DNA of 64,000 bases from Candidatus Marinacidobacterales bacterium (GCA_965237955.1 OZ250169.1:3648001-3712000); one strand, 5' to 3'; positions 378 to 36,166 are shown, numbered from the stretch's first letter. A program made the numbers and translations. Notes: a model not told the origin generated them from the letters alone.

Positions 378-627
378 TGTGCTCCGCAAAAAGTCGATCC
401 AGCGTTGATTTCGCCTGGGCGTTGCGGCCGGCGATTCGGGGTCCCGTGGAAACAGCTTCAGGAACACGCTTCGATATTCGCTCTCGACTAGGTGGTCATC
501 TGCATGGTGGCGACCCGCCCGCCCAAGACGATTGTAAAGCCCACGGCCCTTGGCCCGGTCGCAAACACAGACACTAAGTTGCTGATTTATGGCCTATTTC
601 AAAAGGGCCGAGTTTTGGCACAGGACG
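378..627 (+). mobile_element. 250-bp non-autonomous derivative of the rve-IS family
   Basis: Starts TGTGCTCCGCAAAAAGTCG (also at 12329 and 34061). Ends with about 180 bp matching the 3' non-coding end of the intact element at 34737-34925, terminating in GAGTTTTGGCACAGGACG. No transposase. Confidence 0.8.
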
Positions 628-633
628 GCGGGC

Positions 634-656
634 ACTGATGACTGATGACTGATGAC
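634..656 (+). repeat. Heptamer tandem repeat (ACTGATG)x3
   Basis: Read directly. Confidence 0.9.
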
Positions 657-838
657 CGGCGACGCGTGCTGTCCTCACCCAAGGGCAATGATCGAGAACT
701 GTAGACGTCGCCTACTTGAGTTGGCCGTGTCCAGGCGAGCGACTACCCTGACACAGGGGGTGGACGACTCGAGACAGCAGATTGACTCTGAGTGAGTGTT
801 TTCCGAGTCCGAGGGAAGGCCATTATTTTCGAAGAAAC

Positions 839-2449
839 TCAGGAGCTACAAGAGAGCATCGAGCAGCCGGGGCGATTCCGAGCCCAGTCGGGGCGCTTTT
901 GGGCGTGCTCTTCTTTTCCCGGCTGTTCGTCATAAGGGTGGTGCAGCACATCGAGCAACTCTTCGACGAGCGAGAAGTCTCCCGTCTCGGCTTGGTCGGT
1001 GGCGAGCTGGGCCATGTAGTTCCTGAACACATATTTGGGATTCACGGCGTCCATGCGCTCCCGACGAACAGCGCCACAAACGCCGTCCTCGCGTAGCCGG
1101 GCGCGATAGGCTCGAAGCCAGCGACCCCAACGACGCCGGTCCTCCACCGTCAGCGCATCGGGCGCGTAGAAGGCATCCATCAAAGGTTCCAGCATGACAT
1201 CGTCACGCACGTCGTCATCCGGGTCTGATGCGTCCGCCCCGACCAGGACCAAGCGGCGATAGAAGATGGTCATGTCCGTTTCGACGAGACGCAAGAGCGT
1301 CTGAAGCTCGGTGAAAAACTCGCTGTCGGACTCCCCTTGGTAGGACTCGAACCCGAGCTTCCTTGCCATCATCTCCGGCCACTCCTTCTCGAACGTCTTC
1401 GGATAGACCTCGAGCGCGGCCTGAAGCGCGGGGACATCCTCGACGAGACAATGGATGGCGTTGGCGAGCTGGACGAGGTTCCAGAGGGCGATCTGCGATT
1501 GATGGCCGAAACGGTAGCGGCGGCCCGTGGCATCGGTGGTGTTCGGCGTCCAATCGGGATCGAAATTATCGAGCCAACCGTAAGGCCCGTAATCGATCGT
1601 AAGGCCGAGGACCGACATGTTGTCGGTATTCATCACGCCGTGGACGAAGCCCACGCGCATCCAATGCACGATGAGCTCTGCCGTCTTTCGGCAAACCTCC
1701 TCAAACCACGCCAAATAGCTCTCTTTCGAGGGCCCGCCCAAGTGCGGGAAGTCGTTCCGAATCGTGTAATCGGCAAGCTGTCGCAAGACGTCGATCTCGC
1801 CCCGGGAGGCGAAGATCTCGAAGCTCCCGAAACGGGTGAACGAGGGCGCGACCCTGCAGACGATGGCCCCGGGCTCCGGCGCGGGATGGCCGTCGTAGAA
1901 CATGTCCCGCACGACCTCTTCGCCGGTGAGCACGAGACTCAGAGCCCGAGTCGTAGGAACCCCGAGATGGAACATCGCCTCGCTACACAAAAACTCGCGC
2001 ACCGAAGAGCGCAGCACCGCCAGACCGTCCGCGGAGCGCGCGTAGGGCGTCGGCCCCGCCCCTTTGAGCTGGAGCGTCCAACGTTTCCCGCCCTGACCGG
2101 CGAGCTCTCCAAGGTTGATCGCGCGCCCATCACCGAGCTGCCCCGCCCAATGGCCGAACTGATGGCCGCCATAGCAGGTCGCGTGCGGGTCCATTCCGTC
2201 CAACACCCGATTCCCCGAAAAAACCTGGATGAAGTCCTCTGAACGGCACGTCTCGGGCGAGAGCCCGAGCTCTTCGGCGACTTCCGAGGCGAAAGCGACC
2301 AGCTCCGGAGCACGGACTTTGGCGGGCCAAACACGGGAAAAGCACGCGCCCAAGACTTGGCGCGGTCGATTCGTCTCGTCGGGATCGGCCGGGAGCTCCC
2401 GGGTGAAACGGTTGTCGAAAACGAGCTCGTCCAGAGCCGTCGATTCCAA
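839..2449 (-). CDS. selO: Protein adenylyltransferase SelO (YdiU/UPF0061)
   Basis: YGGHQFG...GQLGDGRA, QLKGAGPTPY, RSSVREFLCSEAM, GFVHGVMNTDNMS, IDYGPYGW, NPKYVFRNY and C-terminal CSMLSCSS. Confidence 0.96.
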   Translation of the reverse strand: MESTALDELVFDNRFTRELPADPDETNRPRQVLGACFSRVWPAKVRAPELVAFASEVAEELGLSPETCRSEDFIQVFSGNRVLDGMDPHATCYGGHQFGHWAGQLGDGRAINLGELAGQGGKRWTLQLKGAGPTPYARSADGLAVLRSSVREFLCSEAMFHLGVPTTRALSLVLTGEEVVRDMFYDGHPAPEPGAIVCRVAPSFTRFGSFEIFASRGEIDVLRQLADYTIRNDFPHLGGPSKESYLAWFEEVCRKTAELIVHWMRVGFVHGVMNTDNMSVLGLTIDYGPYGWLDNFDPDWTPNTTDATGRRYRFGHQSQIALWNLVQLANAIHCLVEDVPALQAALEVYPKTFEKEWPEMMARKLGFESYQGESDSEFFTELQTLLRLVETDMTIFYRRLVLVGADASDPDDDVRDDVMLEPLMDAFYAPDALTVEDRRRWGRWLRAYRARLREDGVCGAVRRERMDAVNPKYVFRNYMAQLATDQAETGDFSLVEELLDVLHHPYDEQPGKEEHAQKRPDWARNRPGCSMLSCSS

Positions 2450-2600
2450 AAGGGGGTGCTTGCGCTGTTTGCTGTTGGTGATGTGTACGTATCCCTTTGC
2501 AAAAAAAGCACTTACGCTCCGTTTAGCGCCCGGCGAAGGTCGTGAGCGCTATTTTGGCTGTAATTTAATGCAGCGTAAAGTCTTAGCGTCATCTCACCAA

Positions 2601-2620
2601 CACTTAATGGCAGAAGCACC
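2601..2620 (-). mobile_element. IS1-family terminal inverted repeat (orphan end)
   Basis: Reverse complement GGTGCTTCTGCCATTAAGTG resembles the IS1 TIR (GGTGATGCTGCCAAC...). A similar motif begins the IS1-like remnant at 11400. Confidence 0.7.
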
Positions 2621-33844: not shown

Positions 33845-34405
33845 AACGGATCAAGAGCGAGTGCCTGGGTCGGATGATCTTCTTCAGTGAGCCATCGCTG
33901 CGGCCGCGCGCTCACCGAGTTCATCCATCATTATCATGGAGAGCGCAACCATCAAGGGCTCGGGAACGCGTTGACCGAAGCGGAAGAATGCGGCGGCAGT
34001 CTCCACGGGAAGGTGCGATGTCGTAAGCGATTGGGCGGCTTGCTCAGCTATTACCACCGCTGTGCTCCGCAAAAAGTCGATCCGGCGTTGATTGCGCGGT
34101 TTAGACCTGCCATGCTCGGCTGCTTCGTGCCGGTTGACCCGACGACGCCACAGGCGTCTTAGGAACGTGGAGAAGCTTGCTCTTGCGACTGTTTTCGAAT
34201 ATCCGGTCTATTGTTCTGGACGCCATCGCGTTCGCTCGCAACCTATGCCGCTCGCCCAGCGCCCTCGCCGCAGAGAACCTTTTCCTTCGGAAGCAGCTTA
34301 CGTTCTTTGTCGAGCGTAAGCAGGCGCCTCGGCGTACGGACAACGCCGCACGGGTCACGATGGCTACTCTCGCGAGGCTATTCGACTGGAAGGAAGCCCT
34401 TATCG
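33845..34405 (+). pseudogene. rve transposase C-terminal fragment (33845-34060), then a left end (34061) and an N-terminal fragment
   Basis: IKSECL...[13 protein letters not shown]...RLGGLLSYYHR; LAAENLFLRKQL...LARLFDWKEAL. Confidence 0.85.
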
Positions 34406-34424
34406 TTTGGCTTTATAGGCCAGC

Positions 34425-34503
34425 GGGTGCGCGACGGCTGTGTACCATCGCGTAGCGAAGCCGTAGACTGAGGAGCCGGATGCGTCAATCGCGCACGTAC
34501 GGA
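34425..34503 (+). ncRNA. Group II intron 3' relic (end of IEP and domain V)
   Basis: ...VYHRVAKP* followed by GAGGAGCCGGATGCGTCAATCGCGCACGTACGG, a domain-V-like hairpin. Domain VI absent. Confidence 0.55.
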
Positions 34504-34511
34504 AATGTAGA

Positions 34512-34736
34512 GCTCTACATTTCCCAGCTTATGTGGAGCGTACGGTTATGGGGAGTCCCACCGTTAGCGTCATACGTTCGGGCCGGTTGTCGGAATATGT
34601 ACGCGGTTAGGGGCAGGAGTACTCCCCATAAATAGTATAGCGCTGCGCATGTCATCCTCTAGTAGGACAGGAGGAAAGCATGCTAGACAAGTACTTCCGA
34701 TCACCGTTCACGTTGGAACAATTACGAAATGGACCC
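34512..34736 (+). mobile_element. Probable RIT (recombinase-in-trio) left-end relic
   Basis: Inverted arms GCTCTACAT-N10-ATGTGGAGC; IR pair TTATGGGGAGT / ACTCCCCATAA; RBS + MLDKYFRSPFTLEQLRNGP cut at 34737. Confidence 0.5.
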
Positions 34737-36166
34737 CGTCCTGTGCCAAAACTCAGCCCTTTTGAAATAGCCGATAAATCAACAGCTTAGCGTCTGTGTT
34801 TGCGACCGTGCCAAGGGCTGTAGGCTCTACAATCGTCTTGGGCGGACGGGTCGTCACCATGCAGACGACCACCTGGTCGAGAGCGAATATCCAAGCGTGT
34901 TCCTGAAGCTGTGTTTCCACGCTACGCCGGTCGAGTCCATCGAGGGGCTACCGTCCCGACCACAATCTAGGCGGCACGGCAGTAGTAGTTGAGAATGCCC
35001 CCAAGTCGCTCTCGCGACACGATGGGGCCAGCGTCATTCGCGCTTGCCGGCAGAGGTGTGAGGAGCTCGTTGCCGAGACCTTGGTGGTTCCGTTCTGTGT
35101 GATAGTGCACTACGTATTCGGTTACCGCTGTGCGCAGGTGTCGCTCACTGAGAGGTACGAAGCGGTCGAGACACTCTCGACGTATGGAGAGAACGAATCT
35201 TTCCGCATATGCGTTCAGATTCGGACTATTAGCGGGAAGGCGAAGGGGCTTCACGCCTGAATCTCTCAACAGCCCACGTACCGCCTCGGTGAATAGCGGG
35301 TCCCGGTCGTGGATGAGGTATCGCTTGCCAAGGAGGAAACCATCCCACATGTCAGTGAGGTTTCTTGCCACCTGCTTCATCCACTCCCCGTTGGGGTCCG
35401 ACGTTATCCCACCGATGCACACGCAGCGAGTGGCGATATCGATGACAAACAGGACATGGTAGCGGACGAGCCCGAACGGGTTCACAACCTCGACGGTGAA
35501 CAGGTCTGTCGCAGCGATGGCGCCCCAATGAGCCTTGATGAAGGTGCTCCACGACATGCTCCTGCCCCGCTCCGGGGCAGGAGCGATACCGTGCTCGGCG
35601 AGGATCCTCTTGATAGTGTTGCGTCCGAGTTCATGTCCTAGGTTCTTGAGTGCGCCTCGCAGGCGCGTATATCCCCACGTCGGGTTCTCCCGCGCCACGC
35701 GCACAATGAGCTCACGGATGTCCTTCGCCGTCGGAGGCCGGCCTGGACTCCGGTTCTTGCTGCCATCGTACTTGGCTGCGATGAGGTGGCGGTACCAGCG
35801 CAGAAGCGTAGCGGGTGTGGCAACGGACGCAATCTGGGCCAGCGCCTCGCGGCCCAAAGCCTGGGCCTTGACGGCGAGCCTGCGCCGGTCGTCGTCCGAG
35901 AGCCTGAGACGCTTGCCCCGAAGCCCGGCTCGGAGCACACGGTTCTCCTCTCGCAGGTAATCAATCACATCCTGCTGCTGGCGGTTGACCCAGCCAGCCA
36001 CAACGAGCAGTAGGAATTGCACGTGGTACGTCACCATGGAGCTGAAGATAACACCCTCGGTCCAGACGATTGTAGAGCCTACAGCCCTTGGCCCGGTCGC
36101 AAAACACAGACGCTAAGCTGTTGATTTATCGGCTATTTCAAAAGGGCCGAGTTTTGGCACAGGACG
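34737..36166 (-). mobile_element. Intact 1430-bp rve/DDE IS with ~102-bp terminal inverted repeats (transposase 34967-36037)
   Basis: 34737-34838 is the reverse complement of 36064-36166 with about 3 differences. DDE motifs [22 protein letters not shown]...RLGGILNYY. Confidence 0.93.

Follow-up and report, generated by a model that had tools for sequence, protein, structure and literature searches.

An IS481-like insertion sequence without target duplication, its one-sided target motif and its confinement to islands in a Candidatus Marinacidobacterales genome

We analysed a 64,000-nucleotide stretch of a Candidatus Marinacidobacterales genome (GCA_965237955.1 OZ250169.1:3648001-3712000; called the window), in the first 36 kb of which one DNA terminus is repeated many times. 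These termini are the ends of a 1.43-kb IS481-like DD(35)E insertion sequence (IS), here named E. By definition, DDE transposases join two ends with a constant stagger and thereby duplicate the target. E ends carry no such duplication, and we favour, with modest confidence, the reading that the E transposase joins one end at a time to the one-sided motif RSN/GGRT (the slash marks the junction), deleting or replacing the adjoining DNA.

The repeated terminus is the end of an IS481-like element

The initial annotation of the window had listed sixteen copies of the terminus and none beyond position 36166. An exact search for GGCACAGGA recovered all sixteen (10 on the plus and 6 on the minus strand) and none further on; the tip letters are CG at 14 of the 16 and GG at 4204 and 11399. 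As a control for chance, the 18-mer was found in 437 exact copies in the genome, against 0 for the reversed sequence. Matches to the terminal 16-mer with at most two mismatches give a genome-wide count of 517 E ends. Two of the sixteen termini bound an intact copy:

34737..36166, minus strand: intact E copy, 1430 bp, with terminal inverted repeats of about 105 bp, tips 5'-CGTCC-TGTGCCAAAAC (5'-CGTCC-TGTGCC) and no target duplication
34967..36037, minus strand: E transposase gene, 356 aa, rve/DDE; Pfam rve_3, HTH_32 and HTH_21

There are 22 full copies in the genome, with a median identity of 96% to the window copy. Minus/plus tip pairs about 1.43 kb apart are numerous, and 20 of 26 such intervals hold an open frame of at least 360 codons. 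The catalytic triad D177, D243 and E278 (numbered on the first row of the homologue alignment, A1), with its D-35-E spacing, is invariant in 17 of 17 aligned homologues. The top NCBIfam model for the transposase is IS481 (NF033577), at 101.7 bits and thus below the cut-off of 224, and no match to the IS6 model (NF033587) was obtained at E<=0.001. A structure model of moderate quality (predicted local distance difference test, pLDDT, 72; predicted template modelling score, pTM, 0.47) places the predicted fold near Mos1, IstA, TnsB and retroviral integrases (DDE/integrase), and a sequence search of the PDB returned no relative. Homologues of E are annotated merely as 'integrase core domain' proteins. 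An IS110 identity, suggested by an adjacent fragment, was rejected because E's own open reading frame (ORF) is of the rve type.

E resembles the IS481 family in having one ORF, of the rve DD(35)E type and about 350 aa long, in its size (1.2-1.45 kb in the family), in its best NCBIfam model and in the sequence TGT...ACA, which lies 5 bp inside the E tips. It departs from the family in its score below the cut-off, in tips that read 5'-CGT and not TGT, in its one-sided motif and in the lack of a duplication, which in IS481 is 2-15 bp and mostly 6 bp long (PMC10045372). The same source gives three length classes for IS1202 duplications (5-6, 15-17 and 24-29 bp), none of which occurs at E ends. Family a has TGT...ACA ends, an rve transposase and 30% identity to E, and family c has 57% identity and tips CGTC(C/G)-TGTCC.

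About 11 'related left ends' had also been proposed. Since both ends of E carry the same terminus, we assign these instead to the tips of other IS families:

3768, 5313, 12933, 13907 and 31645: b-family tips
22838/24183: a-family tips
4399 and 31057: c-family tips
378, 12329 and 34061: TGTGCTCCGCAAAAA tips

E copies are mosaics (four-gamete conflicts 35-57%). A signal of homogenisation between the arms of an element (permutation p=5e-5) was not used, since the alignment traces it to three copies of a subfamily and to four right arms that are damaged. Most E ends are stubs, many of them about 50 bp long. Units with both E ends and no transposase recur, among them one of 313 bp (15 copies, with 29 of their 30 flanks distinct), one of 390 bp (6 copies) and one of 130 bp (5 copies); such two-ended units in varied flanks are the mark of miniature inverted-repeat transposable elements or mobile insertion cassettes, and E has them. 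Save for one 3.5-kb pair, no recurring gene-bearing unit with an E end on both sides was found.

Several smaller observations concern the ends. Each E repeat holds a site, AATCAAcagcTTA, about 40-52 bp from the tip (window 34737-34790 and 36115-36166), that resembles the consensus for integration host factor (IHF), and 146 of the 517 E ends are cut at 50-59 bp, just beyond it. At G000:C1:444966-446438 two E ends surround a 220-aa gene in place of the transposase, in a single copy. A unit of about 3.1 kb (G000:C1:3128618-3131760 and copies) with a 588-aa ORF, serine-recombinase-like by eye, is in fixed fusion to an E tip; its E-tip flank has 17 occurrences across genomes. This unit may target the E end or may travel with it.

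E leaves no target duplication

The position of the tip was determined from empty alleles, with at least three for each junction used in the target analysis. In 86 independent junctions, from 472 clean ends, GGACG was absent from the target; it therefore belongs to E, and the tip lies 5 bp outside the IS481-like TGT...ACA. The possibility that CG is itself a short target duplication was rejected, the empty alleles being without CG. The CG tip is found across the clade, at both ends in 33 of 45 callable repeat pairs from 100 distant loci. The records of these distant homologues are labelled Gemmatimonadota, Myxococcota, Gammaproteobacteria, Deltaproteobacteria, Rokubacteria, Bryobacterales and Verrucomicrobiota, and the closest E copies (94-99%) are labelled Candidatus Marinacidobacterales.

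No direct repeat of 4-400 bp was present at any of 129 E end pairs in the host genome, in agreement with the earlier remark that no copy in the window had a clean target duplication. Likewise, none of 4-69 bp was seen at 105 pairs in relatives, and none of at least 4 bp at the CG tip of 45 distant elements. A 2-3-bp duplication was rejected as being at chance level (2-bp matches in 17 of 147, against 15.6 expected), and 2-3-bp matches in distant elements numbered 6 of 33 against about 5 by hand estimate. A long duplication was rejected as well, partial long repeats occurring in 6 of 231 pairs against 1-6 in shuffles. Control elements of the same genome keep their duplications (ISL3 17/17, IS21 21/34), some of these copies lying inside the islands described below; an IS3 control, whose left boundary was misplaced, was left out.

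The target is one-sided and the ends appear to be joined singly

The target consensus derived from empty alleles is R-S-N/G-G-R-T. If both ends were placed by a staggered cut, the pooled junctions would have to mirror each other around the stagger. For E this symmetry was rejected at each stagger from -4 to 10 (86 junctions, p<=3e-22). A further 81 junctions, taken from relatives, gave the same asymmetry (p<=4e-13), as did 25 junctions of family c. Of the controls, IS21 (35 junctions) is compatible with symmetry at 6 bp (p=0.74), and the best fit for IS5 is at 2 bp (p=0.027); tests of the a and b families, with at most 15 junctions and partly repeated sites, were not used. No mirror site was detected 6-79 bp away in 792 flanks (at most 1.6%, against 49% at true sites, in-sample), and reciprocal partner junctions showed no modal offset. 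The two flanks of an E pair share one locus in 3 of 107 testable pairs, at unrelated offsets of -326, -179 and +706 bp; two seeming rejoined empty sites proved to be repeat artefacts. From the asymmetry, the absence of a mirror site and of a modal offset, and the rarity of flank rejoining, we infer that each end is joined singly. The two E ends behave alike.

These data bear directly on whether E undergoes ordinary two-ended replicative transposition, as IS26 or IS903 do, with intramolecular deletion or inversion and recombination erasing the duplications later, so that the islands are IS graveyards. Pooled junctions should then stay symmetric, as they do for IS21, and those of E are asymmetric at every stagger tested; moreover, homologues in seven other lineages are also free of duplications, and the partner junctions lack the modal offset. 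Such a history would nevertheless fit several facts. Duplications are documented to be lost through adjacent deletion and through recombination between IS copies (PMC11708052; PMC7986276), E copies are older and more mosaic than other local IS (96% against >99% median identity), IS5 is equally without scars, and the E repeat has the internal cTGT and caaa motifs that PMC7986276 describes for IS6 ends. On balance, we consider this explanation unlikely.

E is confined to islands

The host genome is a single contig of 8.13 Mb. Mapping of the terminus, which had been suggested as a check, shows that it is clustered and not dispersed: 504 of the 517 ends, and 22 of 22 full copies, lie in 19 islands that total 1.6 Mb, about a fifth of the genome, and of 163 bins of 50 kb, 104 contain no end where 6.8 such bins would be expected. 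The 36-kb cluster is not exceptional and belongs to one of these 19 islands; this begins about 2.3 kb before the window, which spans its final 36 kb. The density of the RSN/GGRT motif is alike in islands (7.9/kb) and core (8.5/kb), so that the supply of sites does not explain the clustering. Repeats make up 40% of island DNA against 12.5% outside, and the GC skew of the replichores is lost in islands (53% of blocks agree, against about 70% in the core). tRNA genes lie within a few kb of several island borders (G000:C1:126836, 923088, 2008284 and 7659714), and tRNA-Glu(CTC) has four copies, some of them in or near islands. A duplication of at least 12 kb at 99.9% identity, with several ends inside, links G000:C1:~137500-150000 and ~496800-509300.

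Islands are shared and reshuffled among relatives

The 18-mer is present in 10 of 31 genomes including the host (6 genera, 2 families); eight of the others have 27-426 copies and the ninth has 1, and among 300 further genomes of the phylum it was found once. The transposase is 96-99% identical across the carrier genomes, and the selO, rlpA and FRG genes of the window are shared at 97-99%. We compared the host with 1.41 Mb of relatives' DNA, chosen mostly as island DNA. Of the shared blocks (at least 95% identity), 203 of 232 map to host islands. Of 421 ends in relatives, 44 keep the host's junction. With 17 of 90 neighbour pairs kept between genomes, gene order is not conserved. End-cargo junctions recur identically in independent assemblies; the initial annotation had named dispersed ends with target duplications, synteny and repeat-induced misassembly as findings that would speak against it, and none of them was made.

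Junctions also shift between genomes. For rlpA, the junction at 2753 is shared by G008, G015 and G018, but in G021 and G023 it is displaced inwards by 74 bp. Among 73 junctions of relatives in unique DNA, 11 coincide with a host tip, and 10 of the remaining 62 lie 10-95 bp beyond one (p=3e-8; about 1 expected). The edges of shared blocks (n=360, after duplicates and one under-masked 1.29-kb repeat were dropped) fall at an E tip in 53 cases (0.43% expected), at other IS tips in 47 and in repeats in 82, and 178 are unexplained. In independent sequencing runs, cargo contigs end at or cross the same tips. Three junctions of facing E ends have spacers of 24, 25 and 27 bp, the shortest found, and one of them recurs in an independent public run. 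In sponge-metagenome runs just 16-17% of words were present.

Cargo is enriched in defence genes and often cut

PADLOC was applied to 200 kb of island and 200 kb of core DNA (110 core ORFs drawn from 141). At E<=1e-25, matches were obtained for 14 of the 76 ORFs from islands and for 8 of the 110 from the core (p=0.036; operon members are not independent in this comparison), and when four kinases and two sigma-54 activators are removed the core count becomes 2/110 (p=9e-5). Ordinary genes and multi-gene operons are also present in the islands. An open frame of at least 150 codons starts from 78 of 248 tips with unique flanks (31%), against 56% at random island sites. Genes are thus spared above chance and yet often cut, a pattern more in keeping with erosion that selection brings to a stop than with precise cassettes. 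Cargo between typed end pairs was LR in 14, LL in 10 and RR in 0 cases (n=24), near the arm frequencies and without an orientation rule.

The initial annotation had offered two models. The first, a hotspot pruned by end-mediated adjacent deletion, is supported by the nested junctions, of which that of rlpA is an example, and by the 10-95-bp offsets. The second, a gene-capture platform whose ends act as reusable, integron-like joining sites, holds for the outcome, as cargo is shared across genera at 95-99% and enriched in defence genes. Its mechanism is not supported, in view of junction positions that are ever new, the lack of orientation bias of facing ends, the tips that open onto long frames, the mere 53 of 360 block edges at an E tip and the FRG gene, which is bounded by b-family ends. 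Both models are partly supported, because each end, if joined singly, would erode its neighbours and splice in foreign blocks.

Alternative routes and related systems

A further alternative is that E is copied out as IS3 elements are, with a second cut that slides, or that it forms translocatable units of the IS26 type; circles of element plus gene would then re-enter by recombination with a resident copy. This predicts cargo between right and left ends in direct orientation, whereas the LR, LL and RR counts above were found; there is no mirror motif at 24-27 bp, and no short-spacer circle junction was seen in the contigs, in which rare forms are lost. The facing junctions with 24-, 25- and 27-bp spacers are in line with it, staggers of about 25 bp are reported for IS481EU and IS1202 (PMC10045372), and new copies are nearly always beside old ones, as the island location of all full copies indicates. 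We regard this route as quite improbable.

Also quite improbable, in our estimate, is the use of ends as reusable recombination sites, where an end with its flank (GACG/GGRT) exchanges conservatively with a target (ACN/GGRT) over about 7 bp, as integron-like cassettes would. The lost side of the target does resemble the tip (A 42/86, C 55/86 and G 34/86 at -3 to -1), some relatives' ends retain the host junction (the 44 noted above), and defence cargo is enriched; however, the enzyme is a DDE transposase and not a tyrosine or serine recombinase, junction positions are ever new with 31% of tips leaving a long open frame, and orientation follows no rule. Among 99 well-supported junctions, 11 depart from the empty allele within their first four flank bases, several towards GG; this would fit overwriting by donor flank bases in an exchange, and rare target alleles account for the same cases, the filter having limited outer mismatches. 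Misassembly or chimeric binning through repeats is a negligible prospect: contamination is estimated at 6.2% and 40% of island DNA is repeated, yet the genome is one contig, the pattern is the same in eight other assemblies with identical junctions in other genomes, and cargo contigs of independent runs end at the same tips or span them.

Among known systems, IS26/IS6 pseudo-compound transposons and translocatable units are like E in their IS arrays around single useful genes, their often missing flanking repeats and their cargo shared across hosts, and they share the inner cTGT and caaa motifs (PMC7986276). E differs in having no IS6 model match, tips of CG and not GG, repeats of about 105 bp against 14-20 bp, no 8-bp duplication in any case and no direct-orientation bias. 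Adjacent deletion mediated by IS150 and IS903 also gives progressive loss beside an end without duplication, and IS481 has been found without a duplication at a rearrangement in P. fluorescens SBW25 (both from PMC11708052). There it is a side reaction of normally duplicating elements; for E, not a single insertion with a duplication was found. Passive insertion into existing breaks is argued against by E's strong target motif.

In ISEcp1 and IS91/ISCR one end mobilises neighbouring genes and the far boundaries are variable; ISEcp1 leaves 5-bp duplications, and IS91 leaves none and has an HUH enzyme and unlike ends. E is comparable in its proposed one-ended capture, and differs in its DDE enzyme and in its two alike ends that behave the same. 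Integrons resemble E in outcome, namely reshuffled accessory genes rich in defence functions. E has no fixed attI/attC-type crossover or tyrosine integrase; its junctions are variable and creep, and 31% of them cut genes. Multi-gene blocks occur, the ends are oriented at random and many of the edges are due to other IS, and for these reasons we do not consider it integron-like.

A model for single-end joining and points that weigh on it

In the single-end reading that we favour, the 3'-G tip would attack a single strand on the 5' side of GGRT. The branched product would be resolved by replication or by host recombination. If the site were further out on the same strand, adjacent deletion (creep) would follow; if it were on another molecule, the end would be spliced to foreign DNA, an event that could be closed by a second end, by another IS or by homologous recombination between IS copies of 94-99% identity. 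One-ended events would remove DNA and need a second crossover, and would survive only in dispensable, repeat-rich regions, which supply it. Selection would stop the erosion at useful genes such as defence genes. This reaction chemistry is deduced; the element, its CG tips, the lack of duplication, the polar motif, the missing partner junctions, the nested junctions, the confinement to islands and the cross-genus cargo were observed directly.

Several findings weigh against single-end joining. IS5 has no duplication of at least 5 bp in 50 copies, 38 of which are in islands; since it is equally scarless and island-biased, a missing scar alone is not specific. A two-ended reaction with full flank turnover and strong retention of the GG flank could mimic part of the polarity. 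The junctions may not be fully independent events, as relatives share some of them (44/421). With 178 of 360 block edges at no listed tip and 47 at other IS, E is only one agent of the reshuffling. Neither an intermediate nor an ongoing event, nor the entry of a first copy into a naive genome, was observed, and no short-spacer circle junction or empty site was seen in the contigs of four runs, which drop rare forms.

A broader possibility, which we put forward tentatively, is that a widespread, unnamed DDE clade has given up concerted two-ended insertion for the joining of single ends to a polar 7-bp motif, and that the resulting cross-genus exchange builds and prunes megabase defence-rich islands in marine Acidobacteriota, doing the job of an integron with a retroviral-type integrase. 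No description of the E clade was found in the literature searched; ISfinder, subscription papers and supplements lay outside the search and may name members. If correct, a scarless clade in at least seven lineages with a one-sided motif would represent a new mode of reaction and would account for the turning of a fifth of the chromosome into a strand-scrambled mosaic, whose genes are common to different genera and families at 95-99% identity. It would parallel the assembly of resistance clusters by IS26, but with a different chemistry and anti-phage cargo. Tools that require a duplication or TGT tips would misplace the boundaries of E. The reaction model can be tested with the 356-aa protein and a 105-bp end.

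Organisation of the window

The remaining features are as follows.

437..627, plus strand: E right-arm fragment, tip joined downstream of selO
839..2449, minus strand: selO cargo (Pfam); DNA 97% identical in G009 and G013, at loci without E ends
2621..2753, plus strand: E right-arm fragment, tip joined to the rlpA block
2979..3641, minus strand: rlpA cargo (DPBB_1 + SPOR); DNA 99% identical in six other genomes, two families
3681-3765: second E transposase gene fragment
4206..4302, minus strand: E end with tip GG, not CG; common to G008 within the rlpA block
4763..5048, plus strand: E right-arm fragment, facing the 5222 end over 173 bp
5222..5276, minus strand: E end of 55 bp in fusion with a b-family end (b tip 5313)
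5408..8245, minus strand: DUF4062-NACHT cargo; near-identical contigs in four public runs
8719..8858, no strand: miniature E unit, left arm 8719-8842 plus a 16-bp end
11368..11399, plus strand: E end, terminal CG replaced by a d-type IS end
11856..12109, minus strand: E transposase gene fragment
12277..12552, no strand: miniature E unit, E tips of 20 bp and 23 bp
12934..13906, minus strand: FRG cargo block (gene 12956-13852; PADLOC PDC-S15), bounded exactly by two b-family ends
14156..14215, plus strand: E end at the close of a hybrid b/E unit (13907-14215), an arrangement that recurs in G023 and G015 between different outer flanks
22838..24183, plus strand: sister element a, rve; 15 of 16 full copies in islands
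23915..28165, minus strand: type I restriction-modification cargo: hsdM, hsdS and an hsdR that element a cuts
28412-29496: IS5-family element, 50 full genome copies
29498..29628, plus strand: E left-arm fragment, inner side cut by IS5
29824..30939, plus strand: HNH-like cargo, 371-aa ORF
31625..31953, no strand: miniature E/b hybrid unit, 3 genome copies
32242..33741, minus strand: GmrSD_N (DUF262) cargo

The cargo names proposed for selO, rlpA, DUF4062-NACHT, FRG and GmrSD/DUF262 were confirmed by Pfam; the HNH gene has no Pfam or NCBIfam match, its C-terminus being HNH-like by eye only. The intervals between ends had been described as holding mostly one intact gene each. This does not apply to 34737/36166, which is one intact IS, to 8719/8858, 12277/12552 and 31625/31953, which are miniature units, or to the 15 kb of 14215-29628, which contain several IS and the type I restriction-modification operon. 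In G015 and G018 FRG is present without the b-family ends.

Hybrid E/b units occur at 13907-14215, 31625-31953 and 5222-5313, and a b tip lies within 400 bp of 37 of the 517 E ends; the E and b families may cooperate. Element a stands between an ORF fragment (21858-22937, by eye the N-terminus of a type ISP restriction enzyme) and the cut hsdR (23915-24745), so that a single element borders the truncated ends of two different defence genes. A TonB-dependent receptor gene at 36200-38979 is duplicated, at 99.9% identity, at C1:908015-910793, in a segment that runs from just beyond the 36166 tip to an IS21. Further on, at 43996-60657, are five tandem Sortilin-Vps10/BNR paralogues of about 3.3 kb, 83-96% alike in blocks.

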